Positions 5,153 through 63,419 of a DNA stretch of 64,000 nt are shown piece by piece. The DNA is taken from positions 4,176-68,175 of the forward strand of contig JANXCT010000003.1 in the NCBI GenBank assembly GCA_025059875.1, in the 5' to 3' direction. Source of the stretch: Candidatus Kapaibacterium sp. Lineage in GTDB: Bacteria > Bacteroidota > Ignavibacteria > Kapaibacteriales > HRBIN21. Every line of letters begins with the position of its first letter. Position 1 is the first letter of the stretch. The notes beneath the pieces are model-generated. The model ran no database searches. It saw only the letters and a list, made by a program, of their open reading frames with translations, and was not told the origin of the DNA. The position numbers and the translations under genes are program-made.

Positions 5153-7056
5153 TCCTCCGCTTGGGCAATGAAGCGCTCAATGACGGCCAACCCTTGGCGC
5201 CAGAAGGCCGGCTGTGTGACATCAATCCCGAACTGCTGGAGCAGAACCTCAGGAGCTTCCGAACCACCAGCAGCTAACAGCTCGCAGTAGCGCGGTAAGA
5301 ACGCCTCTCCCTTGCGCTGGTACTGCTCGTAGAGCGACAGGACTAGTAGCTCGCCGAAGGCATAGGCGTAGACGTAGCCGGGTGTATGGAGGAAATGCGG
5401 AATGTAGCTCCACCAGAGAGCGTAGTTCTGCGTCAGCTCCACGCTGCCTCGGAACATGGCCTGCTGTGTCTCCATCCAGTAGGCAGAGAACTCCTCGGTC
5501 GTCAGCTCCCCTTTCGTCGCACGCTGGCGGTGGATGGCATCCTCAAAGCGGTTCATCGCCACCTGCCGGAAGACCGTCGCCAGGAGGTCATCCAGCTTGC
5601 CCAGGAGCAGCGCCAATCGAGCCCGGCGGTCATCGGTCTGGCGCAGCAACCGCTGGAAGACGAGCATCTCTCCGAATGTTGAGGCCATCTCCGCCAGCGT
5701 CAGCGGCGCATGCGTCTGCAAGACGCTGTGCTGCCGCGAGAGGTACTGATGGATCCCATGCCCGAGCTCATGGGCAAGGGTCAGCACATCCCGAGTCGTA
5801 CCTGTGAAGTTGAGGAAGACATACGGGTGCACCGATGGCACCGTAGGAGCAGCGTAAGCCCCTCCTTGCTTGCCCGGGGTGACAGCAGCATGAATCCAGC
5901 CCTGCTCGAAGAAGCGGTCAACGATGCGGCCGAACTCTGGAGAGAAGTCCCAGTACGCCTGGCGGACAATCTGCGAGGCTTCGCGCCAGTGCCACCGATG
6001 TAATCCCACCGGCAGCGGTGCATAACGGTCCCACTCATAGAGCCGATCCAGCTGGAGGAGCCGACGCTTCAGCGTGTAATAGCGCTCCACCAGCTCGTAG
6101 CCCTCAACAACGGTGCGGATGAGTACCTCAACAGTAGAGTCGCTGACCTCATTCTCCAGGTTCCGCGGAGCTAACCAGTGGGGATAGCCGCGGAGTTGGA
6201 CGACCGTAGTGTGCCAGTCAGCCAGGAGCGTGTTGAAGATGAAGGTTAGGAGTCGAGCATTCGCACGCAGGCCTTCAGTGAAGGCTTCCGAAGCGCGACG
6301 CCGCAGCTCTCGGTCGGGATGGTGGAGGAGCGCCAGCAGCTCCTGCTGCTGGTATGGCTTGCCATCTAAGGTGTAGACGGCACCGCTGGTGAGCTCATCG
6401 AAGAGTCGAATCCAAGCAAAGCGGCTGGTTGTCTCCTTCAGTACCAGCACCTCCTCCGCTGCCTCCTCCAAGGTGTATGGCCGGAACTGGAGGGTATGGG
6501 CCAGCCAATGCCGCCAGCGTCGAATGCGAGGTGAGCTCAGGATACGCTGTTGGAAGTCCTCCGGAGCATGTATCCACTGCAGGGGCACGAACACCAGAGC
6601 GCGCTCTGCAATCGCGCTCTGCTCCCTAACTCGCTGCAAGAGAGCGCCAAGCTGTGGGTTCCCCGTGTCAGTCGACCACAGCAAGTACACGTAGCTATTG
6701 AGCCGAGAGCTCGTCTCCAGCAGGGCTTCATATTCGCGGAGCAGAGCCTCTACTTCCTCTTCGGTCGCTGTAGCGAATTTCCCACGCCAGCGTTGGGCAA
6801 AGGCTTCTGCCCGCTGCGGGAGTTCCTCGAGGTCAGAGCGGAACTCGCGGGAGTCAATTCCCGGATAGAGGTCTTTCAAGTCCCAAACGACGGTTTCGGC
6901 TCCAGAATCCCGGTTCTGCTCCCCCGTTATCGTCCCAGACTGGAGGCCTTCAGCTTTCAGAAGTGCTCGATAGTGCATTCTCGCACTGCTATGCTTATGG
7001 CACAATACGGTACAACATTCGCGGGAACGGAATCGTTTCCCGGATATGCTGGGCAC
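5137..7056 (-). CDS. pepF: Oligoendopeptidase F (M3 family)
   Basis: 'HELGHGIH' zinc motif and M3B peptidase architecture. The true start may be the Met at 6978, which would avoid overlap with asnS. Confidence 0.85.
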
Positions 7057-8347
7057 CGGTGATCCACTTGACCGTGCGCTCTATCCCAAGCCCGAAGCCA
7101 CTGTGGGGTACCGAGCCGTAGCGGCGTAGGTCCAGATACCACTGGAACGCCCCCTCCGGCAAGCCATGCTCGCGGATGCGCTGGAGGAGTGCATCGTAGT
7201 CGTCCTCCCGCTGGCTGCCTCCGATGATCTCCCCTCCACCTTCAGGAGCCAACATATCCATGGCGAGGACAAGGTCAGGGTTTTCCGGATCTCGCTTCAT
7301 GTAGAAAGCCTTCACAGCCGCAGGATACCGATGGATGATGCAAGGCTTGTCGAATTCCTCCATGATAGCATCCTCTTGGGGTGCACCGAAGTCCTCGCCC
7401 CATGGAAAGTCTACGAGCTCCTCGCTCCCATCGGGCAATTTCCGGTGGAGCTTGACCCCTTTGCGGCGCACAATCTCCACGGCCTCGGTGTAGCTGATTC
7501 GATAGAATGGACGCCGCACCTTCTCTAGCATCGATAGGTTCCGCCCCAGTGTCCTCAGCTCCTGCTCGCAGTGGCGCAGCACGTACTGTACGATGTACTC
7601 AACCAAGTCTTCGGCCAGGTCCATGTCGTCCTCCAAGTCAAAGAAGGCTGCCTCTGGCTCCACCATCCAGAACTCCGTCAAATGGCGGCGAGTCTTCGAG
7701 CGCTCAGCTCGGAAGGTGGGCCCCAGAGTGTAGACCCGGCCGTGGGCCATTGCTGCAGCCTCCGCGTAGAGCTGGCCCGATTGGGAAAGGTAAGCCTTGC
7801 CCAGGTCGAAGTAGTCTAGCTCGAAGAGCGTTGTCGTCCCCTCGCAAGCATTGGCAGTCAAGATTGGAGCATCGATTCGCACGAAGCCATTCGCATCCAG
7901 GAACTCACAGATGGCTCGGATAACCGCCGCCCGAACCCGCATGATAGCATGCTGACGTGTCGAACGGAGCCACAGGTGGCGATGCTCCATGAGGAATTCC
8001 ACGCCATGCTCCTTCGGCGTGATAGGATAGCCACGCGAGAGGTGGAGAATCTGGAAATCTCGCACCTGGAGCTCATATCCTCCTATGGCCCGCTCATCTC
8101 GGCGAACGATCCCTCGGACAATGACCGAAGATTCTTGTGTCACCTCCTTCACCGCCGCAAAGACCTCCGGGATGACCTCAGGCTGGAAGACGACCAACTG
8201 GCAGAAGCCCGAGCCATCCCGAAAGCGCAGGAACTGAAGCCGCCCTTTATCCGTGCGGTCTGCAATCCACCCTCTCAAGGTAACCTCCTCTCCGACGAGC
8301 TTCGGCAAGTCGGCAATTCGCTGGTAGCTGCGGTAGCGTGAACCCAT
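6995..8347 (-). CDS. asnS: Asparagine--tRNA ligase
   Basis: Class II aaRS motifs, an N-terminal OB-fold, and 'FRAE...LTEFWM' with a C-terminal '[13 protein letters not shown]'. Confidence 0.95.
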
Positions 8348-8429
8348 TACTCTGGCCTGCTATAAGGCTCGCAAAATTACGCAACCCCGGAAGGGCTCTT
8401 TCCCGATGGAGCATCTACGACCTAGGGCG

Positions 8430-8437
8430 TAATTTTG
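8430..8437 (+). promoter_or_regulatory. Bacteroidetes-type -7 box (TAATTTTG) for the rpmE-rpsR operon
   Basis: Matches the TAnnTTTG consensus, 36 nt upstream of the ATG at 8473. It lies in the second arm of an inverted repeat whose first arm is the -7 box for the divergent asnS gene. Confidence 0.45.
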
Positions 8438-8472
8438 CAGTCAGCCGTAACTCTGAGACTGCGGATTTGGCC

Positions 8473-8661
8473 ATGGCGAAAGTACAGAGCTTTGCCGACA
8501 AGGTTCGGAAGGCAGAACAGCGAGGAAAGGGCCCCGTCATGGTGCAGGTCATCAAGGGGTACCGATCTGAGCGCGGAACGATTCGCTTCCTCAAGCGCTT
8601 CGTCCGCGTCAATGACCTGAGCGAAGTAGACACGTTGGACATTCAGAAGGACGGCCAATGA
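8473..8661 (+). CDS. Small conserved protein, DUF4295-like, translationally coupled to rpmE
   Basis: 62 aa, '[39 protein letters not shown]...'. It resembles small Bacteroidetes proteins found beside r-protein genes. Its TGA stop overlaps the rpmE ATG (ATGA). Confidence 0.5.
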
Positions 8662-8918
8662 AGAAGGGCATTCACCCTTACTACCGCCCGGTTGAGGTCG
8701 TGATGACCGATGGGACTACGTTCGTCACCCGCTCGTGCGCTAAGCGTGACCGGCTGGTCCTGGAGATTGACTCCAAGAGTCACCCCTTTTTCACTGGCAA
8801 GCAAATCCTTGTCGACACCACCGGTCGTGTTGAGCGCTTCCAGCGCCGACTCCAGAAGACGGAGCAACTCCGCCAGCAGAAACAACTCCAACGGCAGCAA
8901 GAGACCTTACAGGAGTAG
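8658..8918 (+). CDS. rpmE: 50S ribosomal protein L31 (non-zinc form, with a Q-rich C-terminal tail)
   Basis: '[14 protein letters not shown]...SHPFFTGKQ...GRVERFQRR'. The CxxC zinc ligands are absent. Confidence 0.9.
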
Positions 8919-31086: not shown

Positions 31087-34000
31087 ATGACCCCATTTGA
31101 CCAAGCACTATCCGACTACCTCAGCCGACTGGAGCAGCTACGCCACCAGGGAGCCAGCGAAGACAGCATCCGCCACGTGTTCCTGCACTTCCTGCAGACC
31201 GCCTTCCCGGAGCTCTCGGCCGCCCGGCCCATCCAGGTGGAGCAGCACGTGCCGGGCCTCTCCGTCCGCGGAGGCTTCGCCGACGCCATCTGCGGCGACC
31301 TCATCTTTGAGTTCAAGCGGAAGCTCGACGACCAGACCCGCTCCGATGGCCAGCAGCAGCTCCAGCGCTACCTGGCCGCACAGCCGCAGCCTGAGCACTG
31401 CGTCGGCATCCTCACTGACGGCCAGACCCTGGAGGTCTACGTCCTGCGGGACGGATAGCTCCAGGAGCTGGACCAGTTCCGACTCGACGCCGGCCGAGCC
31501 GATGAGTGCCGGCTGTGGCTGGATTGCTACCTCTTCCACGAGAAGCAGCTCCGTCCGACGGCCCGGGACATCGCCCTACGCTTCGGGGAGCGGAGCCCGA
31601 CCTTCCAGGGGAGCCTGCAGTTGCTAGACAAGGCATGGCAACGGCTCAAAGCGGATCCATCGGCGCAGACGGAGTACACCCAGTGGCAGAGCCTGCTCTC
31701 CATCGTCTACGGCAGCCCCATAGGCACCGAGCAGCTCTTCCTGCGCCACACGTACCTGGCCCTCTTCGCCCGCCTGCTGGCCTTCGTGGTGCTCCAACGC
31801 AGGGTCCCGCAGGATAGCGAGCTTGCGGGGCTACTCACCGGGCAGACGTTCGAGCAGCTCGGCCTCTACAACTTCGTCGCCGACGACTTCTTCTCCTGGA
31901 TTGACGACGCAACCGCCTCTCCCCTGCTCCGCTCCCTGGCAACCCGCCTGACGACCTCCTACGACCTCTCCGCCATCCGCGAGGACCTCCTGCAGGAGCT
32001 CTACCAGGAGCTCGTGGACCCGGCCACTCGGCATGACCTCGGGGAGTACTACACGCCCGACTGGCTTGCCGAGCTGACGCTGCGCGAAGCGGGCATCCTG
32101 CAGGCCCTTCCGTTCCAACCTCCCGACGACCGGCTCTTCCTGCTGGACCCCGCCTGCGGCTCCGGGACCTTCCTCTTCGTGGCCATCCGGCTGCTGCGGG
32201 AGTCGGGGCTCTGCGGAGCTGAGCTGGTGGACTTCTGCGTGCACTTCCTGGCGGGGATTGACGTCCACCCGCTGGCAGTTGCAATTGCCCGCACCAACTT
32301 CGTCCTGGCGCTGAGCCAGGATTTGAGGGAGTACAGCAGGGACCTGCACGTGCCCGTCTACATAGCCGACAGCCTCACCGTCTCCCACCGCCGCCAGCGC
32401 GTCATCTCCGTCCCTGTTGACGTCGACGACATCGCGCAGCTCTCCGGCAAGTGCGGGGAGTCCCTACCGAGGGAGTTCTCGCTGCCGGCCACGCTGAGCG
32501 AAGACCAGCTCAACGCTGCCATTGACGCCCTGCTGGGGTTTGCCGAGCCTTCCATCACCGACGTAGATGCGCAGCAGGGCTTCCACTCCCGGCTCCTCCA
32601 GCTCGGACTCCCACGTGGACAGTACTACCTGTGGCATGCAAACCTGCGCCTCATGCGCTGGCTCCTGGCCTCGCCCCCGACGGACACGGTCTGGGGCTTC
32701 GTGCTGAAGAACGCGTACCGCCCCAAGCTACTCGCCGCTCGGAAGTCCGCCCTCGTCGTGGGGAATCCGCCGTGGTTGGCCTACCGCTACATCCAGCGGC
32801 GCGACTACCAAGACAAGGTGCGCAGGCTGACCCTGCAGGACTACGGCCTGCTGCAGGGCTCCCAGGCCCACCTCTTCACCCAGATGGAGCTGGCGACGCT
32901 CTTCTTCGCCTTCTGCGCCGACCGCTACCTCGCCGACGGCGGCACCATCGCGTTCGTCATGCCCCGGAGCGTCCTGACCGGCACCAAGCAGCACGACGTC
33001 TTCCGCCAGCGGTTCGTAGCCACAGCGGCGCTCATCGTAGACTGCGAGCGGGTCAGCCCGCTCTTCAACGTCCCCTGCTGCGTGCTCGTATGGCGGAAGC
33101 ACTCCTCCGGAGCCCACGCACAGGGCATCCCTCTGCTGGTCCTGGAGGGCAAGCTGCCGGAGCGTAACGCACCGCTGCAGAGGGCGTTACGCATACTCCG
33201 GCGGTGGCAGGGATCCTACACCCTTCCCAGCACCGCTACGGCGAAGAGCTTCTACCACCCAAAGGTTACCCCGGGTGCTACAATAGTGCCCCGCTGCCTC
33301 TGGTTCGTACGCCCCCGGGCCGAAGCACTCGTCATCAGCCAGCAACGGCCACCGTTGGAGACCGACCCTACCGTAGAACCTCGGACCAAGCCGCCGTGGA
33401 AGGGCCGGCGGCTGCAGGGGAGGGTAGAGGCGGACTTCCTCTACGCAACGCTCCTCTCCGACGACATGCTGCCCTTCGGCTGGCGCCGCCTGGCGCTCGT
33501 CGTGCTCCCCATAGACGCCACCACCCGCCACCTCATCACTGCCCAGCAGGCCATCACGATGGGGGCAACGGGACTAGCCGACTGGCTGAAGCAGGCAGAG
33601 TCCATCTGGAACCGGCACAGGAAGTCACAGCTCGATCTGCTGGGCCGCCTCAATTGGCAGAACGACCTTACCGACCAGAGCCCTACGGGCGTGTACAAGC
33701 TGCTCTACAACACCAGCGGGACGTACCTCTGCGCATGCGTCGTGGACCCCAGCGATGCGAGCGTCCAGCAGGTCCATGGCCTGCCGGTGAAGGGCTTCTT
33801 CGGGCAGTACACGACCTATTTGTTTGAGACGCTCGATGGCGACGAGGCACATTACCTCTGCGCCATCCTCAACGCTCCGTGCGTGGACGCAGCCATCAAG
33901 CCGTTCCAGCCAAGAGGTGCCTTCGGTGCCCAGAGCGGGAAAGGAACTCCTTCCCATCCCGCGCTTCAACCCACAGGACCCGCTGCACGTGCAGCTAGCG

Positions 34001-34165
34001 GAGCTCAGCCGGCAGTGCCACGCGAAGGTGAAGCAGAGCGTTGCTGCGATGGACCAGGCGTTGCTGAAGCAGCCCATTGGCCGGCTGCGCCAGCGGATTC
34101 GGCAGCAGTTGCAGACCGAGCTGGAGCAGATTGACCACCTGGTGCAGCTCTTGGGGTTGCCGTAG
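31087..34165 (+). pseudogene. MmeI-family type IIG restriction-modification enzyme (N-terminal PD-ExK nuclease, gamma-class N6-adenine methyltransferase, then a target-recognition domain), disrupted by an in-frame TAG and a C-terminal frameshift
   Basis: The N-terminal 'RGGFADAICGDLIFEFKRK' aligns with the MmeI D-x9-E-x-K nuclease motif. Methyltransferase motifs are 'GEYYTP', 'LLDPACGSGTFL' (motif I) and 'VVGNPPW' (motif IV). Both segments are in frame 1 and are separated only by the TAG at 31456-31458. The true C-terminus '...KELLPIPRFNPQDPLHVQLAELSRQCH...LLGLP*' lies in the +1 frame from about 33938 and ends at 34165. Confidence 0.75.
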
Positions 34166-37890: not shown

Positions 37891-38370
37891 TCAACACCGG
37901 AGGATACAGAGTGCCGTGAGGTCTGGTGAAGGCTGGTGGTGCGTTCCTCTCAGAGAGGTCCGAGTTTGCCAGCTCCAGAGGATAGGAAGGGCCAGCTTCA
38001 GGTGGCCAACGATAGCGGTCGGCAGCACGAGCCCCTCTTTCCCTTTCTCCGGAAGCCCCTGCGGAATGAGCTCAGTGATGCTCTCGTAACAGTGCCCGTC
38101 AAAACAGCATGGCGGCAGCTCATCCGAGGCCGGCTCGGAGCAGTCTTCTGCAGCGACACAGCAGCTAGCCTCCTCTTCCGCTGACGGCATTGCCTGGATG
38201 TGGAGGGACGAGAGCGTGCAGGGCTCCGTCAGGCACAAGCGGGAACAGAGGATGAGCGGCAACACGAGAGTCACGCTGCCGTAGAGGCCCAGGAGGATAC
38301 CGCTGAGCGCTCGGTACCGATGTCGGAGCGTCCATCTCATCGCAAGCTGAGGTGACGATGCCGATACCAC
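37891..38370 (-). CDS. Hypothetical small membrane protein with a Cys-rich motif
   Basis: One TM helix 'ILLGLYGSVTLVLPLILC', then 'CCVAAEDCSEPASDELPPCCFDGHCYES'. GC3 bias is consistent with coding in the first ~100 codons, and it is co-oriented upstream of the TonB receptor. The start is uncertain. Confidence 0.35.
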   Translation of the reverse strand: MVSASSPQLAMRWTLRHRYRALSGILLGLYGSVTLVLPLILCSRLCLTEPCTLSSLHIQAMPSAEEEASCCVAAEDCSEPASDELPPCCFDGHCYESITELIPQGLPEKGKEGLVLPTAIVGHLKLALPILWSWQTRTSLRGTHHQPSPDLTALCILRC

Positions 38371-38487
38371 GATATTGCTCGATTCGCCCCTACCGCGCCC
38401 ACTTCCTAGGGAGCACTCCGCTCAAGGAAGGCTCCCCTAGAGCTCCGTCCTCGCACCCCTGCCAAATCGCTAGCATGCTGGAAGTGG

Positions 38488-38511
38488 CGGGTTTGTATTT
38501 TTGCTGACCGG
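38488..38511 (+). promoter_or_regulatory. -7 box TATTTTTG followed directly by the palindrome CTGACCGGCTGGTCAG
   Basis: Matches TAnnTTTG at 38488-38495. The 16-nt palindrome at 38496-38511 overlaps the predicted transcription start (TSS), upstream of the PNPOx-MenA fusion gene. Confidence 0.4.
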
Positions 38512-38531
38512 CTGGTCAGTCGAACCATGCT

Positions 38532-39899
38532 TTGGGTCTCCTGATGGATATCCAGGCACTGCGAGCGGCCAAGCAGGTCTTCCGCGAGAACAAGGCCTTG
38601 ACGCTCGTCACTCACGGTAGCGATGGGCTGTGGGCCGGTAAGGCCTACTTCGGCGAGCAAGACGGCTACCTCTACGTCGCTCTGGAGCAGGGCCGGAACT
38701 ACCGCAACGTCATCGAGAACCCGCGTGTCTTCTTCGTGATCGAGCGTGGCGTCCCCGACCGCTTCATCCAAGGCGAAGGGATAGCTGAACCCTTGGGGCC
38801 TATCACAGAGCGGCCCGAGCGCAGCATCATCTTCCGCAAGGCGTTGGAACTGGTGCTCTTCGCCAAGCTCATCCCCGGAGTGACGCTCTTCCGGATTCGC
38901 CCCACCCGGCTCTTCGTATCGGACTTCACTCGGGAATGGAAGCCGCGAGCTGTTGTAGAGGTCACCGATGCCGTCCTGGACTACTTCCGCAACCAGCTTC
39001 GAGACAAGCCCTCAAAGGTGGCTGTCTTCTGGAAGGCTGTCCGCTCGTTCTCGTTTACGGTCACGCTGGCGCCAGTCCTTCTCGGCTCGCTCGTTGCACC
39101 GGTCTTCCACTGGGGCCTGTTCTTGCTGACCCTCTTGGGCACACTCCTAGCGCACGCCGGAGTAAACGTCATCAGCGACTACGTGGACTGGCGGCGTGGG
39201 GCAGATACCTGGAAAGTCCTCGGCTCCAGCCGCGTCTTAGTGGATGGCCTCATGCAACCGCAGACTCACTTGCGGTTTGGGATCATCCTCATGGTAGCGG
39301 CTGCCATCATTGGCGCCATTCTGGCATCCCTCAGCGGTCCAGCGATTTGGTACCTGATGGCAGCAGGGGCTGCGATTGGCATCTTCTACACCGTCCCGCC
39401 AATTGGGCTCAAGTACCGCGCACTCGGCGACATCGCCGTCTTCCTGGCCTTTGGCCCTTTGATGGCGCTGGGTGCCTACTACGTGCAGACCTCGCAGTTG
39501 GATTGGCTCCCCGTGTGGCTCTCCATCCCGATTGGCCTGCTGACGATTGGCATCCTCCACGGCAACAACTACCGCGACATTGCCGAGGACCGAGCGGCCG
39601 GATACCACACGGTAGCGAGCCTCTTAGGGCCACGAGGTTCAGCATACTACTACGCCGTCCTTGTAGTGGCGGCATACGTGTCACTTCTGCTCCTCGTTAG
39701 CCTGAAGCTGCTCCCAGTATGGTCGCTCGTGGCGCTCTTGACACTACCCGTTGGGTGGCGTAACATTCAGGTGGCCTTCAACCACGCTCGTGTTGCCTTC
39801 AGCTTCCTAGACCTGCTGACGGCCCAACTCCACTTGCTGTTCTCGCTAGCCGTCGTCGCGGGTCTGATCCTCCAGCGACTTGTGCCAGTAGTGTGGTGA
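38532..39899 (+). CDS. menA: Fusion protein: an N-terminal pyridoxamine-5'-phosphate-oxidase-like (FMN-binding split-barrel) domain joined to 1,4-dihydroxy-2-naphthoate polyprenyltransferase (MenA, UbiA family)
   Basis: The C-terminal half carries both MenA motifs, 'NVISDYVDWRRGAD' (compare E. coli 'NLANDYGDAVKGSD') and 'HGNNYRDIAEDRAAGYHTVASLLG' (compare 'NINNLRDINSDRENGKNTLVVRLG'), plus about 8 TM helices. The first ~150 aa are a soluble PNPOx-like domain. The track start is a TTG; an ATG follows at 38544. Confidence 0.75.
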   Translation: MGLLMDIQALRAAKQVFRENKALTLVTHGSDGLWAGKAYFGEQDGYLYVALEQGRNYRNVIENPRVFFVIERGVPDRFIQGEGIAEPLGPITERPERSIIFRKALELVLFAKLIPGVTLFRIRPTRLFVSDFTREWKPRAVVEVTDAVLDYFRNQLRDKPSKVAVFWKAVRSFSFTVTLAPVLLGSLVAPVFHWGLFLLTLLGTLLAHAGVNVISDYVDWRRGADTWKVLGSSRVLVDGLMQPQTHLRFGIILMVAAAIIGAILASLSGPAIWYLMAAGAAIGIFYTVPPIGLKYRALGDIAVFLAFGPLMALGAYYVQTSQLDWLPVWLSIPIGLLTIGILHGNNYRDIAEDRAAGYHTVASLLGPRGSAYYYAVLVVAAYVSLLLLVSLKLLPVWSLVALLTLPVGWRNIQVAFNHARVAFSFLDLLTAQLHLLFSLAVVAGLILQRLVPVVW

Positions 39900-39903
39900 C
39901 CGA

Positions 39904-40536
39904 ATGGGCCTCTCCTTTGCTGGTTTTCCGTTTGGCGGGGTCATTCTGGCGGCAGCCTGGTGGTTCGTGCTCTTCTCGCCGTGGACGGCGCCACAGAACT
40001 CCTTCTGGCTGGGGATGGCGATGGCTACAGGGACACTGCTCGGCTACAGCGCCTGGGTCCTCCGCCGAGAGTGGCAGCCCCTCTTCCGAGTAGAGGCCCG
40101 ATGGATTGCTCTAGGGATCGGATCAGCCTTCGCACTCTACGGTCTCTTCTGGGTCGGCCACGCACTGATGGTCGCCCTCTTCCCTGGAGCGAGCGCCCTC
40201 GTCAACGCTGTCTACGCCCGGCGCGCTGAAGCCCCTGCCTGGCTCATTGCTCTCCTACTGGCGGTGTGGATCGGTCCGGCGGAAGAGGTCTTCTGGCGGG
40301 GCGTCCTCCAACGCTACCTACAGACGCGGCTTCGGCCCATCTGGGGACTACTAGTCGCCACAGTGCTCTACACATTGGTACACATCTGGGCCGGCAACCC
40401 GCCGTTACTACTCGCTGCCTTCGTCGCCGGGATGGCCTGGGGTGCGCTCTTCCTCTGGACGGGCTCCCTCATCCCAGGCATCATCTCCCATGCCCTCTGG
40501 GACGTGCTGATGTTTGTCCTACTGCCACTCCAGTGA
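39904..40536 (+). CDS. CPBP-family intramembrane metalloprotease (CAAX protease-like)
   Basis: 'EEVFWRGVLQ' (EExxxR), 'FxxxH' and 'HALWDV' motifs within a multi-TM protein. Confidence 0.8.
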   Translation: MGLSFAGFPFGGVILAAAWWFVLFSPWTAPQNSFWLGMAMATGTLLGYSAWVLRREWQPLFRVEARWIALGIGSAFALYGLFWVGHALMVALFPGASALVNAVYARRAEAPAWLIALLLAVWIGPAEEVFWRGVLQRYLQTRLRPIWGLLVATVLYTLVHIWAGNPPLLLAAFVAGMAWGALFLWTGSLIPGIISHALWDVLMFVLLPLQ

Positions 40537-40538
40537 GA

Positions 40539-41570
40539 ATGCGTGCTGTCGTGCTCCAAGCCCATGGCGAGCCGCACGAGGCCCTCACCTACCGAGTAGA
40601 CCTCCCTGAGCCAACGCCAGCCCCTGGCGAAGTAGTCCTACGGGTTCGGGCAACCTCGCTGAACCGAGTAGATACTGTCATCCGCCGCGGCTATCCTGGA
40701 TTGACACTACAGTTTCCACATATCCTCGGTGGCGATATCGTTGGCGACGTCGTTGCCTGTGGCGAGGGTGTGCAGTTGCTGCGGGAAGGGACGAGGGTGC
40801 TCGTCTACCCAATCGTGTGGTGTGGCACCTGTTCCCTGTGCCGCAAGGGACTGGAACATCTCTGCCTCCGGTGGCAGTACTTCGGCATGCACCGGGCTGG
40901 TGGCTATGCCGAATACGTTGCTGTCCCAGAGCGTTGCTGCATCCCTCTCCCCGAACACCTGTCGGATGTAGAAGCGGCATGCCTCGGCGTCGCTGGTCTC
41001 ACCGCTTACCATGCCATAGAGGCGGCTGGCGTCAGCGAAGGCAGCATACTGCTCGTCTGGGGAGCAACCGGAGGTATGGGCACCTTCTTACTCCAATTGG
41101 CCCGACACCGAGGTGCTTACGTCATCGCCACCACTCGCAGGATGGAGCAGGCCGAACTCTTACACTCCTGGGGGGCCGACTGGGTCCTGCCAACCCTTCC
41201 GCCAGAGGCTGTCCTGCAGGCCGTCCAGGAGCGCTTTCCTGAGGGCATTGACGCAGTCATAGACTACGTCGGCCCGGCCACCTTCCCTATCAGCTTCGCA
41301 CTCCTACGCAAGGGTGGTCGCCTCATCTTCTGTGGGATCCTCACCGGTCGGGAGACCACACTGAGCATCCACCAGACCTACTTACGACACGTCAGCCTAC
41401 ACGGCATCTACCTGGGGACCCGTGCTGAGTTGCAGGCGCTCATCGGGCTGGTGACCGACGGTATAGTGCGTCCCTACGTTGCAGGCGTCCACCCACTTTC
41501 GGAAGCACCACTGCTGCATCAGCGGATGGAAGCGGGGGCAATTGTAGGCAAGACAGTGATGGTGCCGTGA
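40539..41570 (+). CDS. Zinc-type alcohol dehydrogenase / NADPH:quinone oxidoreductase (MDR superfamily)
   Basis: 'MRAVVLQAHGEP...', 'GGDIVGDVVACGEG', 'VWGATGGMGTFLLQLA' (Rossmann fold). The track ORF over-extends upstream. Confidence 0.85.
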   Translation: MRAVVLQAHGEPHEALTYRVDLPEPTPAPGEVVLRVRATSLNRVDTVIRRGYPGLTLQFPHILGGDIVGDVVACGEGVQLLREGTRVLVYPIVWCGTCSLCRKGLEHLCLRWQYFGMHRAGGYAEYVAVPERCCIPLPEHLSDVEAACLGVAGLTAYHAIEAAGVSEGSILLVWGATGGMGTFLLQLARHRGAYVIATTRRMEQAELLHSWGADWVLPTLPPEAVLQAVQERFPEGIDAVIDYVGPATFPISFALLRKGGRLIFCGILTGRETTLSIHQTYLRHVSLHGIYLGTRAELQALIGLVTDGIVRPYVAGVHPLSEAPLLHQRMEAGAIVGKTVMVP

Positions 41571-42032: not shown

Positions 42033-44408
42033 ATGTTCCACAAATGTTGGAGGTCACTAATGACGAAGGGACATCGTTGGACCCACGGGCAGCATCGTTC
42101 CGACCCGCTTCACGACTCGAAGTGCCTGCTCCGGAGACAGCCAGTACGCTCACTCCGGGCCCTGGTGTGGGGAGCCGTGCTCACTCTCCTGCCATCCCTG
42201 CTGCCGGTCACGACCATTGCTCAGCAGGACTGCCTGACCTTTGACGCCACCGGCGTGAATCACTGTGCACAATGGTTCATGTCGGTCTCGCGCTGCAACT
42301 GGATCGCGACCCCACCTGCGGGGCATCCATCGCCAGCAATGCAGTTCATAGATAGTGCAGGAGGCCCCTCTATAGCAACAAATGCAACACCGTTCTTTGC
42401 CGGGAACTGGCTGCAGAAGGCCCAACAGGGCTGCCTCTGCTTTGACTGGATGATAGACCTCCAGTACCCTTCCTCGCCCCCGCCCACATTCAAAAACCCC
42501 GGCATCGGCATATGGACGGGGACGGCGCCTCCCCCTGTCGCCAACGTAACGAACGCTCTGCGGGCCGAACTCATTGCTCTTCCAGGTGCGCCGGACATGC
42601 AAGAAGACCAATGGTATCGTATCTGCCTTCCCATTGGTCCTTGTGTCGGCGGGAAACTGCCCACAGATGGGAGGTTCACTTGGCTCCTCTCCAACCTACC
42701 ACCCGGCATGGACACCTGCACGGCCTGGAACATGCTCATTGCGAACGTTACTGGTATCTATCTGGGAATTGACTACCACAACTCGCCTTCCGAGCAGGTG
42801 TACTTCGATAACTTCTGTTTTCGCTGTGCGCAGGACCCAGGGGTCTCTGGACTCTGCCGCGAGCTGTGGTCACGGGTGCAGCAGCGCCTTGACTCCGCCT
42901 GCTGCACGATCCAATGGCAGGTTCCGAGCCTCGGGGGAGCCTTTGCCGTAGCGTCTCTGCAGTACTTTGTCTCTGGCGGCCTTGTGGACACTTTCTACGC
43001 CACGGGCTGTCCCTACACAACGAGTCCGCCCGATCTCCACAACACAGTCAGCGGAACTCTTACCTTCAGCCCACCGTGTACCAATCCCTTAACGCTCTTC
43101 AGCGAGATTACGCCAACGACTGCCAGCGGGGAAGTGACTGTCCAGATCTGCGCTCGTCTCATTGGTACTGGCCAGATTGTTGAGTGCTGTGACACCGTCA
43201 TTATCCGATGCCCTCGTGCCCCCATTACGCGCTGCGACAGCCTTGCCGTAGAGCCTTTCATTTGGCCCGGGCTCAACCTTTCAGGGCGGACCTTTACCAT
43301 CTACAACCTGAAACAGCCAGCCTCGCCCATCAGGGAGGTTCGCATCCAGCTCGTGCCCGACCCCAACCCGGGGAATCCAACGTTCAAGTGGAACGGCGGT
43401 GGCCTCTTGGTCGACGGAGGCCCCCGTCCGTGGGGCGTGGCGAACAGCGGTATACCGTACTACAGCCAAATCAGCATGTGGTGCCCTCCACGAGGCCAAG
43501 CCCCACAGGGTCCGGCGGCAAGCAATACAGTCCGGTTCAACTTAGGCGTGGACTACACGCTAAACTGGAGGGGGAGCGCCCAGCTGACAGTCATCCACTG
43601 CGACGGGGATACTTGCCGACTAGCGTACGACAACTGGTGTGCGAAGCCCAATCGTAGAGATTGTCTACCCATCGTGCTGCCCCCAGTGAAAGGGATCGAA
43701 CTACTAGTTCGTCCAACCGTTAGGTCGGCATACCTGCTCGAAGCACAGATTGATACCTCCTTGGTACCGGGCACAGGTGATCTCCACGCCTGTCATGCTT
43801 CCATCGTCCCGATAGCGAGGAATTGGCGAGTCATTGGGGCCAGCGTTGACGACCAGCTCACCCGCGATGAGCGCGAGTCAGGACGGTACCACCAGTGGTC
43901 TGGCGACACCAGAGTCTCCGACGGATGGGCTATCGTGAGCCTCACCCCATGCAAAAGGCCGACGAACCCCATAAAGAATCCTTGGCGACTACTGGCAACC
44001 ATAGCTTCGAACGAGCCGACGACTGACACCCCTCGGGTCGCCATCACTTTCTACGACCAGGATGGCAATCCACTTACCAGCGATACCGTACGCGCAACGA
44101 CACGGCTGACGCCGGTATCGGTAGAGACCACCCAGCCCGGCGGCGACCAGAGCGGCATCCTGCGAATTATTCCGAATCCAGCCGCAGACGAGGTGCGTGT
44201 CGAGTACCGCCTTGCCCAACCTAGCGATGTCGTCGTTGAGCTCTGCGACGTGCTGGGTCGGTGCCGCATGGCAGCGCAGTTGGGCTGGATGCCGGCAGGG
44301 ATCAATACATTCGGGATGAGCACGGCGGAACTGCCGGTGGGCAGCTACATGCTGCGCCTGCGCACGGCTGACGGGGTGCTGACGGCATCGCTGCAGGTGG
44401 TGCGGTAA
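42033..44408 (+). CDS. Uncharacterised Cys-rich secreted protein with a T9SS C-terminal sorting domain
   Basis: Signal peptide 'LRALVWGAVLTLLPSLLPVTTIAQQ', about 38 Cys in 791 aa, and a C-terminal 'RIIPNPAADEVRVEYRLAQPSDVVVELCDVLGRCRMAAQLG...GSYMLRLRTADGVLTASLQVVR'. The start may be Met 42060. Confidence 0.75.
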   Translation: MFHKCWRSLMTKGHRWTHGQHRSDPLHDSKCLLRRQPVRSLRALVWGAVLTLLPSLLPVTTIAQQDCLTFDATGVNHCAQWFMSVSRCNWIATPPAGHPSPAMQFIDSAGGPSIATNATPFFAGNWLQKAQQGCLCFDWMIDLQYPSSPPPTFKNPGIGIWTGTAPPPVANVTNALRAELIALPGAPDMQEDQWYRICLPIGPCVGGKLPTDGRFTWLLSNLPPGMDTCTAWNMLIANVTGIYLGIDYHNSPSEQVYFDNFCFRCAQDPGVSGLCRELWSRVQQRLDSACCTIQWQVPSLGGAFAVASLQYFVSGGLVDTFYATGCPYTTSPPDLHNTVSGTLTFSPPCTNPLTLFSEITPTTASGEVTVQICARLIGTGQIVECCDTVIIRCPRAPITRCDSLAVEPFIWPGLNLSGRTFTIYNLKQPASPIREVRIQLVPDPNPGNPTFKWNGGGLLVDGGPRPWGVANSGIPYYSQISMWCPPRGQAPQGPAASNTVRFNLGVDYTLNWRGSAQLTVIHCDGDTCRLAYDNWCAKPNRRDCLPIVLPPVKGIELLVRPTVRSAYLLEAQIDTSLVPGTGDLHACHASIVPIARNWRVIGASVDDQLTRDERESGRYHQWSGDTRVSDGWAIVSLTPCKRPTNPIKNPWRLLATIASNEPTTDTPRVAITFYDQDGNPLTSDTVRATTRLTPVSVETTQPGGDQSGILRIIPNPAADEVRVEYRLAQPSDVVVELCDVLGRCRMAAQLGWMPAGINTFGMSTAELPVGSYMLRLRTADGVLTASLQVVR

Positions 44409-51035: not shown

Positions 51036-51036
<1 letters not shown>
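50602..51036 (-). CDS. atpC: F0F1 ATP synthase subunit epsilon
   Basis: 'LDVDIITPRGTVFQGKAVAVTLPGTVAPFQVLYQHAPILSTL'. Confidence 0.9.
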
Positions 51037-52496
<1,460 letters not shown>

Positions 52497-52526: not shown

Positions 52527-53261
52527 TCAGCGCTCTACTGAGAGCTTCTTCAGCTGGGAGATGTGCCAAGTGATGTTGATCTCCTTCGGACAAGCCTCCA
52601 CGCAGTTGAAGATTGTGTGACAGCGCCAGACGCCGTTCTCTGTACCGACAACAGCTAAGCGCTCTTCTGTTGCACCGTCACGCGGGTCAAAGATGAAGCG
52701 GTATGCCTTCAGCATAGCTGCTGGAGCCAAGTAATCAGGATGTGACCACAGAGATGGACACGATGCGGAGCAGCATCCGCAGAGAATGCACTTCGTAGAT
52801 TCCATGATCCGCTCCATCTGCTCCGGAAAGACACGGTACTCTCGCCCATCCTCTGGAGGCTCTTCCTTCGGAATCAGGTAAGGCTTGACGGCCTCGTACT
52901 TGCGGAAGAAGGGCTCCATATCAACCACGAGGTCCTTGATGATCGGGAAGAACGGCAGCGGCTCGATCGTGATCGGTCGGCGGAGGTCCAAGTCTTTGAG
53001 CAGTACGGTACAGGCAAGCGCGTTCTTGCCGTTGATCTTCATCGCATCAGAGCCACACATCCCATGAGCACACGAGCGACGGAAGGTCAGCGTACCATCC
53101 TGCTCCTCTTTGATACGGTGGAGAATGTCCAGGACACGGTCGGTCGGATGGGTATCTTCGACGGTAAAGAGCTGGTAGTGCGGACGAGCGTCCGTCTCAG
53201 GGTTATACCGCAGGATCTTTACCTGGAGCCGCATGGGTCTACTTGGCATCTCTCTAAGCAC
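52527..53261 (-). CDS. sdhB: Succinate dehydrogenase/fumarate reductase iron-sulfur subunit
   Basis: 'CAHGMCGSDAMKING' (2Fe-2S) and 'CILCGCCSASCP...CHTIFNCVEACPK' (4Fe-4S/3Fe-4S) Cys clusters. Confidence 0.9.
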   Translation of the reverse strand: MLREMPSRPMRLQVKILRYNPETDARPHYQLFTVEDTHPTDRVLDILHRIKEEQDGTLTFRRSCAHGMCGSDAMKINGKNALACTVLLKDLDLRRPITIEPLPFFPIIKDLVVDMEPFFRKYEAVKPYLIPKEEPPEDGREYRVFPEQMERIMESTKCILCGCCSASCPSLWSHPDYLAPAAMLKAYRFIFDPRDGATEERLAVVGTENGVWRCHTIFNCVEACPKEINITWHISQLKKLSVER

Positions 53262-61344: not shown

Positions 61345-62277
61345 ATGACCTACTACGACACCTGGCGCCGGCGCCGCTTCCTGGCCGATAATCCAGCCCT
61401 GCGAGCAATCATCCTCCTCAACATTGCCGTCTTCGTTGTCCAGCACCTCTTCCTAGCCCTCTTCCGGTACCACGGCACACCGCTGGAGGTGTTCTTCGTA
61501 GAGTACTTCGCCCTCCAGCCTCTGCTGAGCGGTTCCTTCTTCCCCTGGCAGCTCCTGACCTACCAGTTCATGCACGCTGGTTTGGAGAACATCTGGCACA
61601 TCGTCTTCAACCTCTTCATCCTCTGGATGTTCGGGATGGAGCTAGAGCAGCTCTGGGGAAGCCGGCGCTTCACGTGGTACTACCTACTCTGCGGGATTGG
61701 AGCTGGCCTCCTCCACCTCCTCGTCCAGCTCTTCTGGACCTACCCTGCCCCAACGGTCGGCGCATCGGGAGCCGTCTACGGCGTGCTGCTTGCCTTCGGT
61801 CTGACCTTCCCTGACCGCCCTGTCTTCATGTTCCCCTTCTTCATCCCCATCCCGGCCCGCATCCTTGTCATCCTCATGGCAGGCATTGAGTTCATCTCTG
61901 GCGTCAGCAGCGCTGGCTCGCCAATTGCGCACTTTGCCCACCTGGGAGGCGCCCTCACCGGTTTCCTCCTGCTGCGCTTCGGAGACCGCGTGGGACTCTT
62001 CTCAGCTCTCGATCGAGCGTGGTTCTGGGCACGTCGAGCACGTTTCCGGCTCTCCGCTCCACCACGGCGCAGGAGCAGGAGAGGTGTTTCGCAACCTCAA
62101 ACGGTGCGCCTTGTCCCTGCTGAGGAGGTCCTCCTCTACTTTGAAGGGCAGCCTATCACCCAGAGCGACATTGACGCCATCCTGGACAAGATTGCGGCCT
62201 TCGGGTACGAAAGCTTGTCGGAACGCGAACGTCGCATTCTCTACGAAGCAAGTCGCCGTCTCCAAGCAGAGCCATGA
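61345..62277 (+). CDS. Rhomboid-family intramembrane serine protease
   Basis: 'GASGAVYGVL' (catalytic Ser) and 'AHLGGALTG' (catalytic His). Confidence 0.85.
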   Translation: MTYYDTWRRRRFLADNPALRAIILLNIAVFVVQHLFLALFRYHGTPLEVFFVEYFALQPLLSGSFFPWQLLTYQFMHAGLENIWHIVFNLFILWMFGMELEQLWGSRRFTWYYLLCGIGAGLLHLLVQLFWTYPAPTVGASGAVYGVLLAFGLTFPDRPVFMFPFFIPIPARILVILMAGIEFISGVSSAGSPIAHFAHLGGALTGFLLLRFGDRVGLFSALDRAWFWARRARFRLSAPPRRRSRRGVSQPQTVRLVPAEEVLLYFEGQPITQSDIDAILDKIAAFGYESLSERERRILYEASRRLQAEP

Positions 62278-63419
62278 GCGAACTCATCAAGCTACCTGTT
62301 GCTGCAGAAACCTCTGCGGCTATCACCGAGCAGCCCTATGCGACTCGACCATACCGGCGCCGCCGGACCCGGCGCGTCTGGGTAGGGAATGTTCCCGTCG
62401 GAGGGAATGCTCCGATCTCGGTGCAGACGATGACCAAAACCAAGACCGCCGACGTAGAAGCTACGGTAGCCCAAATCCTGCGTTGCAAAGAAGCCGGTGC
62501 CGACATCGTGCGTGTCACCGTCAACGATTGGGAAGCCGCCGAAGCCATCCGGGAGATTGTTCGCCGTGTGGACATCCCCATCGTCGCTGATATCCACTTC
62601 AACCACGTCTTTGCCCTCAAGGCCATAGAGGCCGGAGTTGCCAAGGTGCGCATCAATCCTGGGAACATCGGCTCTCGAGAGCGCATCCGCCAAGTCCTCA
62701 CGGCTGCCAAAGAGCGGGGCATCCCCATTCGGATCGGCGTCAACTCGGGCTCGCTGGAGAAGGATATCCTGGAGAAGTACGGCTACCCTACCCCTGAGGC
62801 ACTGGTGGAGAGCGCTCTCCGGCATGTGGAGATCGCCCAGGACTTCGGCTTCGATGACATCGTCATCTCTGTGAAGTCCACCGACGTGCGGCTGATGATC
62901 GAAGCTTACCGCCTTCTGGCAGACCAGGTTGATTTCCCGCTCCACTTGGGCGTGACCGAAGCAGGACTGCCCGGTCCAGGGATCATCAAGTCAGCCGTCG
63001 GAATTGGCACCCTGCTGGCCGAAGGAATTGGAGACACCATCCGCGTGTCCCTCACGGACGAGCCGGAACGGGAGGTCGAAGTCGGCAAGGAAATCCTCCG
63101 CTCGCTCGGCTTGGCGCAGCGTAGCGTGGAGATCATCGCCTGCCCGACCTGCGGACGAATTGAGGTGGACCTGTTCCGCATCTCCCGAGAGCTAGAGGAG
63201 GCCGTGCGGCGCTCGGGAATCCGCAAGCCCGTCAAGATTGCCCTCCTGGGCTGTGCCGTCAACGGTCCTGGGGAGGCCAGTGAGGCGGACATTGGCATTG
63301 CGGCAGGCCGTGGCGTGGCGATCCTATACAGAAAGGGCGAAGTCGTCCGCCGTGTGCGAGAGGAAGAGATCGTCTCGGCCATCTTGGAAGAGCTAGAGCG
63401 GTTCCAGCCCGAGGAGTAG
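62274..63419 (+). CDS. ispG: 4-hydroxy-3-methylbut-2-en-1-yl diphosphate synthase
   Basis: 'VQTMTKTKT', TIM-barrel plus a C-terminal 4Fe-4S domain 'CPTCGR...GCAVNGPGEA'. Confidence 0.95.
   Translation: MSELIKLPVAAETSAAITEQPYATRPYRRRRTRRVWVGNVPVGGNAPISVQTMTKTKTADVEATVAQILRCKEAGADIVRVTVNDWEAAEAIREIVRRVDIPIVADIHFNHVFALKAIEAGVAKVRINPGNIGSRERIRQVLTAAKERGIPIRIGVNSGSLEKDILEKYGYPTPEALVESALRHVEIAQDFGFDDIVISVKSTDVRLMIEAYRLLADQVDFPLHLGVTEAGLPGPGIIKSAVGIGTLLAEGIGDTIRVSLTDEPEREVEVGKEILRSLGLAQRSVEIIACPTCGRIEVDLFRISRELEEAVRRSGIRKPVKIALLGCAVNGPGEASEADIGIAAGRGVAILYRKGEVVRRVREEEIVSAILEELERFQPEE

Follow-up and report, generated by a model that had tools for sequence, protein, structure and literature searches.

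The window analysed here is a 64,000-nucleotide stretch of Candidatus Kapaibacterium sp. DNA (contig JANXCT010000003.1). The element under study is a gene on its forward strand at 38544..39899 which encodes, in one polypeptide, a small split-beta-barrel domain followed by a membrane-embedded prenyltransferase of the MenA/UBIAD1 type. The features assigned to this gene are given below, with the basis of each assignment in brackets.

38544..39899, forward strand: the whole fused gene, 451 amino acids plus stop (identical protein at NCBI; AlphaFold2 (AF2) model).
38544..38963, forward strand: N-terminal, predicted cytoplasmic split-beta-barrel domain (N-domain), residues 1 to ~140 (PF01243, PDB profile, Foldseek).
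38763..38780, forward strand: the FIQGEG signature of the N-domain family, F74, Q76 and G79 (alignments, conservation counts).
38937..39044, forward strand: linker from the barrel to the first transmembrane helix (TM1), WKPR and then amphipathic helices, residues 132-167 (colinear and conserved in 27 sequences; model).
39015..39896, forward strand: MenA/UBIAD1-type prenyltransferase domain of the UbiA superfamily (C-domain), nine transmembrane helices (PF01040, UBIAD1 8djk_B, AF2).
39165..39206, forward strand: first Asp-rich motif, NVISDYVDWRRGAD, N208-x3-D212-x2-D215-x5-D221, at the predicted cytoplasmic end of TM2 (invariant in 27 homologues).
39564..39590, forward strand: second Asp-rich motif, NNYRDIAED, N341-N342-x-R344-D345-x3-D349, at the predicted cytoplasmic end of TM6 (invariant in 27 homologues).

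In the list of open reading frames (ORFs) the gene is found at 38532..39899 on the forward strand, with 455 amino acids counted from TTG. This in-frame TTG at 38532 is an alternative start; the first ATG, at 38544, is the likely start codon, giving 451 amino acids. The 451-residue product is 100% identical to MCS7176970.1/MDW8012993.1 at NCBI, from a Ca. Kapabacteria metagenome-assembled genome (MAG), where the identical protein is annotated as "1,4-dihydroxy-2-naphthoate octaprenyltransferase". A first-pass annotation of the window had suggested a survey across Rhodothermota/Bacteroidota; the identical protein places the host in the Kapabacteria/Chlorobiota group and not in Rhodothermota.

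The architecture is a ~140-residue split-beta-barrel domain followed by a prenyltransferase of the UbiA superfamily, which has nine helices and retains both Asp-rich motifs. UbiA (PF01040) was clearly matched in Pfam, at residues 179-409 with an E-value of 4.7e-37 and 128.1 bits against a cutoff of 34.2; PNPOx_N (PF01243) fell below its threshold in the protein itself and was matched at the level of the family, as described further below. Scanning of the domain boundary revealed no stop codon, frameshift or credible terminator between the two domains. The single weak terminator-like site, against 2.2 such sites expected by chance, lies within the TM1 coding region, and an internal terminator or promoter separating the domains was rejected on this count. 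No riboswitch or other RNA family was matched in an Rfam scan of the 5' region, 38250-38650. The AF2 model of the fused protein has a mean pLDDT (per-residue confidence) of 91.5 and a pTM (overall confidence) of 0.85, and a pTM of this size for 150 + 300 residues implies that the arrangement of the two domains relative to each other is confidently predicted. Barrel strands are spread over residues 18-139, two linker helices are modelled at residues 142-150 and 158-166, and nine helices follow downstream of residue 168. Foldseek recognised separate UbiA and split-barrel parts in the model. The structure prediction asked for by the first-pass annotation yielded a confident two-domain model with a recognisable barrel.

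Among 5.8 billion proteins searched, 311 homologues were found. Of these, the best 120 are nearly all 445-480 amino acids long, with a query coverage of 94-100% and identity down to 45%, and precomputed annotation with both PF01243 and PF01040 is present on many homologues. Scanning of the GTDB species representatives recovered the full-length fusion in ~60 species from at least 8 phyla, namely Kapabacteria/Chlorobiota, Kryptoniota, Acidobacteriota, Tectomicrobia and Spirochaetaceae as well as Chloroflexota (Dehalococcoidia, Thermoflexus and one Chloroflexia) and WOR-3/Hydrothermales/Caldipriscus. The domain-architecture survey proposed earlier thus finds the same fusion at full length throughout this range. 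In an alignment of 27 sequences, which is colinear through the linker, both halves contain invariant residues, among them all those of the Asp motifs.

As an alternative origin we considered that a frameshift or misassembly had merged two genes, or that a long ORF had arisen spuriously in GC-rich DNA. The sequence is MAG-derived with a GC content of 61% in the window, and many spurious ORFs overlap real genes; this is a general risk only. Against it, ~60 independent assemblies share the colinear architecture of 445-480 amino acids and the conserved linker at 40-97% identity, the two-domain model is of high confidence, and no terminator was found at the domain junction. Because the colinear architecture recurs in ~60 species, the fusion cannot be due to chance or to an assembly artefact; the artefact is already refuted by the comparative data, and we leave it a negligible probability. 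The first-pass annotation had claimed that a soluble split-barrel domain is translationally fused to a prenyltransferase of the MenA family, and had named separate genes, a frameshift or a terminator between the domains as evidence that would speak against it. None of these was credibly found, the ORF is uninterrupted, and we regard a genuine two-domain fusion as almost certain.

Fused sequences formed essentially one clade in a neighbour-joining (NJ) tree of the prenyltransferase halves, computed without support values, which suggests one ancient fusion that was then spread across phyla. A tandem-duplicated Chloroflexia pair branches near the fused clade in this tree. Judged by its sequences, the fusion is under selection. 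On a Chloroflexia chromosome (locus L058; loci carrying homologues are cited by such numbers) two tandem, divergent fused genes were observed at 5962-7323 and about 7400-8743, and the HL2-3 loop of these copies, SARDSDDRTLVD, is strikingly like HKKSDDRTLVD of UBIAD1.

In the C-domain the Asp-rich motifs align with those of E. coli MenA (b3930; TIGR00751) residue for residue, NVISDYVDWRRGAD with NLANDYGDAVKGSD and NNYRDIAED with NNLRDINSD. Counting of Lys and Arg gave 3, 2, 1 and 1 in the inferred cytoplasmic loops and 0, 0, 0, 1 and 0 in the outer segments (four loops and the C-terminal tail). By these positive-inside counts, the N-domain and both Asp motifs are predicted to be cytoplasmic, on the same side as the opening of the active site. 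Foldseek with the C-domain returned 8djk_B (UBIAD1), 6m31, 7bpu, 4od4 and 4tq4. A heme O synthase-like identity was rejected, as the matches reached only E ~1e-4, far weaker than those of the MenA type.

UBIAD1 is the eukaryotic MenA homologue, a menadiol geranylgeranyltransferase making menaquinone-4. BLASTP of the window protein gave 35% identity for UBIAD1 and 28% for E. coli MenA, the one bacterial MenA compared, with scores of 131 and 78 bits respectively. UBIAD1 was the sole PDB sequence match of the C-domain (E 1.4e-35) and the best solved-structure match (PDB 8djk/8djm; 35% identity over 292 residues, Foldseek E 5e-10), and it stands next to the fused clade in the NJ tree, which has no support values. 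Both proteins have nine transmembrane helices, both Asp-rich motifs and the HL2-3 loop pattern S/DxRxLVDxxLxP, and a further UBIAD1-like trait of the fusion, as far as the table entry for bacterium HR11 discussed below goes, is that it can occur without the 1,4-dihydroxy-2-naphthoate (DHNA) pathway. UBIAD1 differs in having no split-barrel domain, in being eukaryotic, in its use of geranylgeranyl diphosphate and in its additional regulation of HMG-CoA reductase.

The NCBI models point in the same direction. The window protein passed TIGR00751 (menA) marginally, with 109.4 against a cutoff of 102.15, and was far below the cutoffs of NF004749, NF004751, NF004750, NF004753, NF004754, NF009926 and TIGR02235. 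On the NCBI MenA models E. coli MenA scored 509-684 bits and the window protein 109-152 bits; the fusion, its unfused relatives and UBIAD1 all scored ~75-200 bits. UBIAD1 reached 90.4 on TIGR00751, just under the cutoff, with an overall score pattern like that of the window protein. E. coli MenA belongs to the same superfamily branch and differs in its 28% identity, its higher model scores and its lack of a 150-residue N-domain. By these comparisons the C-domain belongs to the MenA/UBIAD1 branch and is nearer to UBIAD1 than to E. coli MenA, and the automatic label "1,4-dihydroxy-2-naphthoate octaprenyltransferase" probably overstates what this branch does. The protein had earlier been described as a bona fide MenA with both Asp-rich motifs. 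The motifs are there; the MenA identity was overstated, in view of the single marginal equivalog pass, the closer likeness to UBIAD1 and the orphan status of the fusion in HR11.

The N-domain has the split-barrel fold of the PNPOx superfamily, an assignment from sequence and model that is solid at the level of the family. PF01243 was matched by all 20 of the 20 aligned family N-domains, with a best E-value of 7e-11. A PDB profile search with the N-domain returned GSP26 (3ec6, E 2.6e-4), HutZ (3tgv), Rv2991 (1rfe, E 0.011) and an FAD-binding protein. Foldseek with the N-domain of the AF2 model returned 2iab, 5bnc, 2i02, 3tgv, 6vna, 3ec6 and 2hq7, comprising both flavin-binding and heme-binding structures, with a probability of 1.00 for 2iab, 2i02, 3ec6, 2hq7 and others and target-normalised TM-scores of 0.65-0.79. 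The earlier assignment of a PNPOx-like domain therefore holds for the fold, through family-level PF01243 and Foldseek, with the protein's own Pfam score below threshold; binding of flavin mononucleotide (FMN) or pyridoxine phosphate oxidase activity is not implied by it. Identity with PdxH was rejected, as the barrel alone is present and no NCBIfam model matches the N-domain; E. coli PdxH (1dnl, 1jnw) was a poor structural match, with a root mean square deviation of ~10 and target-normalised TM-scores of 0.38-0.40.

In an exhaustive HMMER search over 1.84 billion representatives, the N-domain family comprised only 36 clusters, a mix of fusions of ~450 amino acids and standalone proteins of 140-160 amino acids at 30-35% identity. 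By sequence it is a small, distinct family inside the PNPOx or 'FMN-binding split barrel' superfamily (PF01243, SSF50475). Fused and standalone members have a core in common, consisting of W30, N55, F74, Q76, K99, R/K117 and D127; the FIQGEG signature, with G79, belongs to it. Because these residues are conserved in both kinds of protein, they would define the putative ligand site of the domain itself. Conserved in the fusions only are K33, E48, F64, G85, E92, R93, K108 and R135, which may form the interface with the membrane domain.

The nearest relatives of the N-domain are GSP26 and similar small PNPOx-like flavin proteins (3ec6, 2hq9, 2i02, 2iab; PF01243, PF16242) with ~140 residues, a common fold and target-normalised TM-scores of 0.66-0.79. 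Identity to them is below ~20%, and the signature W30, N55, F74-x-Q76, K99, R117 and D127 is the N-domain's own. Flavin is favoured as the candidate ligand because the nearest sequence relatives are flavin-binding proteins of the GSP26 type (3ec6, 2hq9). In the alignment with GSP26 (3ec6), residue R/K/H51 falls on the first Lys of its SKK stretch, which we take to be a flavin-phosphate binder; this is no more than suggestive. Heme-binding split barrels of the HutZ/HugZ/HOZ type (3tgv, 5bnc, 6vna, 6m0a) are structural neighbours, and the N-domain family is unlike them in having no conserved His or Cys, no iron or heme gene context and a MenA-like partner. A conserved His or Cys was sought in 61 fused and 16 standalone N-domains without finding any, which argues against heme ligation of the HutZ/HugZ type; Pden_1323 and HupZ bind heme without the His-bearing loop (PMC11602992).

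These structural neighbours raise the question whether the N-domain is catalytic at all. It could be a sensor of heme, of the quinone redox state or of another small molecule, or a dimerisation or stability domain on an ordinary MenA-like enzyme. Heme sensors, heme chaperones and proteins for which no cofactor is known are among the neighbours (5bnc, 3tgv, 6vna, 6m0a and CREG, 1xhn), non-enzymatic split-barrel proteins are documented in the literature, the fusion-only residues listed above could form an interdomain interface, and unfused relatives of the prenyltransferase evidently work without the N-domain. The lack of a conserved His or Cys counts against a heme sensor, with the reservation that some heme binders lack that His. 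The polar core common to standalone homologues points to a specific ligand site and not to a scaffold, and a purely structural role is unlikely because Myxococcota keep the domain in an adjacent gene of its own. We consider a non-catalytic N-domain unlikely.

Two genes follow the fused gene closely.

39904..40536, forward strand: CPBP / Rce1-like glutamic intramembrane protease, starting 4 nucleotides past the fusion stop (PF02517, 70.9 bits).
40539..41570, forward strand: medium-chain dehydrogenase/reductase (MDR), starting 2 nucleotides past the CPBP stop (Pfam ADH_N and ADH_zinc_N).

By this spacing the fused gene, the CPBP gene and the MDR gene are a predicted three-gene operon. Read by eye, the window CPBP protein retains the EExxxR, FxxxH-like and HxxxD motifs; in the MDR protein a four-Cys cluster of the structural-zinc type, CGTCSLCRKGLEHLC, is present, and GGD replaces the catalytic GHE of zinc alcohol dehydrogenases (both by eye). 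Adjacency to a CPBP gene is conserved at loci L006-L009, L036, L062 (CPBP at 2772-3398), L066 (2774-3445), L068 (6897-7517), L069 (6892-7524), L073 (6888-7577) and L093 (10924-11457). The CPBP gene lies directly downstream of the fusion in four further species of the Kapabacteria group, and it takes the same position behind unfused MenA-like genes in Kapabacteria, Omnitrophica, Pirellulales, Phycisphaerales, Bdellovibrionia and one Pseudomonadota MAG; in such MenA-like/CPBP pairs the stop and start codons often overlap. Most fused loci have no CPBP gene. The genomic pairing is thus a robust, unexplained association, and our literature search found no link between MenA-like genes and CPBP. Synteny of the MDR gene was seen only in L006, L007, L008 and L036, which are close Kapabacteria relatives, and every named NCBIfam model, including quinone oxidoreductase, was below cutoff for the MDR protein. 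Of the quinone-centred locus described in the first-pass annotation, the CPBP pairing recurs in a subset of the fused lineages, and the 'quinone oxidoreductase' is unsupported by the cutoffs.

A universal conserved neighbourhood was rejected, as the loci of HR11, Tectomicrobia, Hydrothermales and Dehalococcoidia have no neighbouring genes in common with the window, and clustering of neighbours gave lineage-specific or partial associations only. Among these, three Spirochaetaceae species (L054 7304-13229; L046 2516-8204; L044 2038-5585) have the fusion back-to-back with a polyprenyl-diphosphate synthase gene and a complete nqrABCDEF operon, which encodes a Na+-NADH:quinone oxidoreductase. Alkalispirochaeta (L079 4790-7904) has an overlapping operon with an NDH-2-like gene, an unfused MenA-like gene and a polyprenyl synthase gene. 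Two loci of the Myxococcota type (L085 4224-7818; L083 4216-7503) hold adjacent genes for a polyprenyl synthase, a MarR regulator, an unfused MenA-like protein and a standalone N-domain homologue, an arrangement that reads as the split-gene counterpart of the fusion. Together, the fusion beside NQR and polyprenyl synthase genes in Spirochaetes and the Myxococcota split-gene operon support a role in the synthesis of respiratory prenylquinones, and we consider it probable that the fused protein has such a role.

Three further observations on neighbouring genes were made. At L085 a small membrane ORF lies between the unfused MenA-like gene and the standalone N-domain homologue. A 'metal-dependent hydrolase' of the metallo-beta-lactamase (MBL) fold (PRK00685, 264 bits, above cutoff) recurs beside the fused gene in the HR11/Acidobacteria group and in Kryptonia (L002 9585-10292; Kryptonia L016, L018, L020 and L022; L025). 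At L087 5001-6736, and also at L088, a standalone N-domain homologue (P0127) is followed by a 414-residue NADH-dependent FAD reductase of the PadH / ferredoxin-reductase type, with TusA and DsrE genes close to P0127; the adjacency of P0127 to this reductase hints that the N-domain family works with a redox partner.

The CPBP pairing also bears on whether a quinone is the product. Eukaryotic Rce1-type proteases recognise prenylated substrates, and the acceptor could be a non-quinone compound (a secondary metabolite, a flavin-like cofactor or even a peptide) whose prenylated product is acted on by the CPBP/Rce1-like partner. All MenA equivalog cutoffs but one were missed, the MenA-like/CPBP pair is conserved in Kapabacteria, Omnitrophica, Planctomycetota, Bdellovibrionia and Pseudomonadota, and an orphan 'MenA' is common in ubiquinone, futalosine and pathway-less genomes among the table rows cited below. 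Several points stand against this: the adjacency to NADH:quinone oxidoreductases (NQR, NDH-2-like) and long-chain-type polyprenyl synthases, the close likeness of the Asp motifs and HL2-3 loop to MenA and UBIAD1, the lack of surrounding biosynthetic cluster genes in most fused lineages, and the absence of CPBP from most fused loci. A non-quinone acceptor is in our judgement very improbable.

The quinone pathway content of fusion-bearing genomes was checked in one genome, that of bacterium HR11 (GCA_002898535.1; locus L002, protein P0024). In its row of the table published with a 2026 survey of quinone pathways, MenA is scored as 1 and MenB, C, D, E, F, H and I as 0; MqnA, C, D, E, L and P are present, as are UbiX and MenG (PMC13386864 Table S1). 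The row of GCA_001442925.1 repeats this pattern. According to this row the HR11 fusion is an orphan in a futalosine-pathway genome that has its own MqnP prenyltransferase and no DHNA route; without MenB-F, neither DHNA nor DHNA-CoA would be made there. Among the rows listed, an orphan 'MenA' is common in futalosine, ubiquinone or no-pathway genomes, including GCA_002898535.1, GCA_001442925.1, GCA_003132585.1 and GCA_002897695.1 (PMC13386864 Table S1), and from these rows orphan MenA-like enzymes seem to be a general phenomenon that still lacks an explanation. Among the ORFs scanned in the 64-kb window there were no other men or mqn genes. A tblastn search with E. coli MenB-F of the ~1 Mb of DNA around the loci found no Men-pathway genes near fused genes; its only matches were a generic crotonase (L003) and, close to an unfused homologue from Verrucomicrobia (L065), a MenF-like gene.

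These results bear on the reading of the protein as a classical MenA with substrate channelling, in which the N-domain would bind DHNA or hydrolyse DHNA-CoA and pass the head group on without redox chemistry. The DHNA-CoA thioesterase step is poorly conserved and comes just before MenA, and fused enzymes usually catalyse consecutive steps. Aromatic W30/F74, basic K99/R117 and polar N55/Q76/D127 would suit a planar carboxylated hydroxy-naphthoate or a hydrolase site, TIGR00751 was marginally passed, the MBL-fold hydrolase recurs beside the gene in Kryptonia and Acidobacteria, and the fusion is enriched in thermophiles, where by our own chemical reasoning free DHNA would quickly oxidise or decarboxylate. 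Set against this are the fusion carrier HR11 with no MenB-F in its table row, and hence no DHNA or DHNA-CoA, the lack of Men genes near any fused gene in the ~1 Mb of locus DNA, and the standalone family members that occur away from quinone genes; moreover, we know of no thioesterase with a split-barrel fold. The channelling reading has, as we see it, a small chance of being right.

The thermophile enrichment mentioned above was estimated from composition by the IVYWREL index. The index is 0.446 over 36 window ORFs, which predicts optimal growth at ~80 C. Estimates at the level of single loci are noisy, with a median of 62 C for fused and 49 C for unfused loci; L001 gave 44 C against 83 C from the full window of the same organism, so that locus-level values are no more than suggestive. 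The fusion carriers are mostly hot-spring bacteria.

Our preferred reading, held tentatively and short of probable for the chain as a whole, is that the N-domain is a head-group conditioning module for the prenyltransferase. The C-domain would join a polyprenyl chain to a naphthoquinol-type head group, giving a menaquinone-type respiratory quinone, a step which is fairly strongly indicated. It need not be a classical DHNA octaprenyltransferase of the Men pathway, belonging by our comparisons to the UBIAD1-like branch whose members are often 'orphans'. The N-domain would bind a planar redox ligand, most likely flavin, and/or the naphthoquinone itself, for which the indications are weaker, and could hand the reduced quinol head group to the mouth of the active site beneath. 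Aromatic prenylation in this family needs the nucleophilic quinol form, as for UBIAD1 with menadione, and because of this requirement a built-in reductase or binding domain would make oxidised, scavenged or heat-labile head groups usable. Such conditioning fits the UBIAD1-like character of the C-domain, the orphan status in HR11 and the thermophile enrichment.

Precedents for the naphthoquinone reduction logic exist. FDOR-A quinone reductases such as Ddn are F420H2-dependent menaquinone reductases and mycobacterial split-barrel proteins, and NDC1/NdbB carries out a required quinone-to-quinol reduction step in phylloquinone synthesis. By analogy Ddn and NDC1/NdbB may illustrate what we propose for the N-domain; they differ in being separate polypeptides, and the link to the N-domain is at superfamily level only (Rv2991, 1rfe, E 0.011).

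Several points weigh against head-group conditioning. PNPOx_N (PF01243) was matched in the window protein at residues 12-126 with 16.9-20.2 bits, below the cutoff of 28.1, and no model in the NCBIfam scan matched the N-domain. The conserved core of the N-domain is rich in acidic and amide residues, which is odd for a site holding an anionic flavin, and in small split-barrel flavoproteins the cofactor is usually located at a dimer interface. Standalone N-domain homologues other than those described above lie in heterogeneous, unrelated contexts (e.g. beside a VOC/glyoxalase protein or on short contigs), and for this heterogeneity standalone homologues were rejected as a guide to function. The pathway argument draws on a single genome, and in the Kapabacteria genome of the window the fused gene might act as an ordinary MenA. 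Finally, the superfamily contains heme binders and non-enzymes, and a 2024 study cautions that the split-barrel fold fails to predict the cofactor (PMC11602992).

A stronger form of head-group conditioning would make the protein a self-sufficient enzyme for head-group salvage or remodelling, a bacterial relative of UBIAD1 in which the barrel reduces an oxidised, scavenged naphthoquinone to the quinol and the prenyltransferase adds the tail at once. Candidate head groups would be menadione, 1,4-naphthoquinone and 2-carboxy-naphthoquinone. Men-less bacteria could in this way build or re-tail menaquinone in hot, oxidising environments, and the MenA-like/CPBP pair might be a second, unrecognised component of a UBIAD1-like system. 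We regard this extension as doubtful.

Some other features of the window were observed in passing. Respiratory and isoprenoid housekeeping genes are present, with SdhB-like at 52527-53261, ATP synthase beta at 51036-52466 and IspG at 62274-63419. Downstream of the operon, at 42033-44408, a 791-residue ORF has a C-terminal stretch which by eye resembles a type IX secretion (Por) sorting domain. An 837-residue ORF at 31621-34134 has weak N6_Mtase, MmeI_Mtase and Eco57I matches in the precomputed annotation of an identical contig, and may be a type IIG/IIL restriction-modification enzyme.

In the literature searched, no paper describing a fusion of a split barrel to MenA was found, nor anything specific on quinones in Kapabacteria or Kryptonia. 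A paper on S. pombe Coq12 remarks in passing that some split-barrel orthologues are fused to a 'prenyl transferase'. The protein is already in the databases, with the automatic MenA name and the precomputed Pfam architecture, and the fusion is not categorically new.

The biosynthesis of menaquinone counts as well mapped, and its enzyme MenA is a drug target; even so, genome surveys turn up many orphan MenA-like genes in organisms unable to make the substrate of MenA. The fusion points to a possible partner function for one orphan MenA-like branch, and the probably over-called MenA annotation affects pathway-based predictions of quinone content. If the N-domain conditions the head group, prenylquinone synthesis would gain a newly defined step or salvage route; this might explain how thermophiles handle labile naphthoquinols, and would provide a tractable bacterial model for chemistry of the UBIAD1 type. 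The fused gene is a clean, testable lead into two open problems, the orphan MenA-like enzymes and the handling of the head group in quinone biosynthesis.

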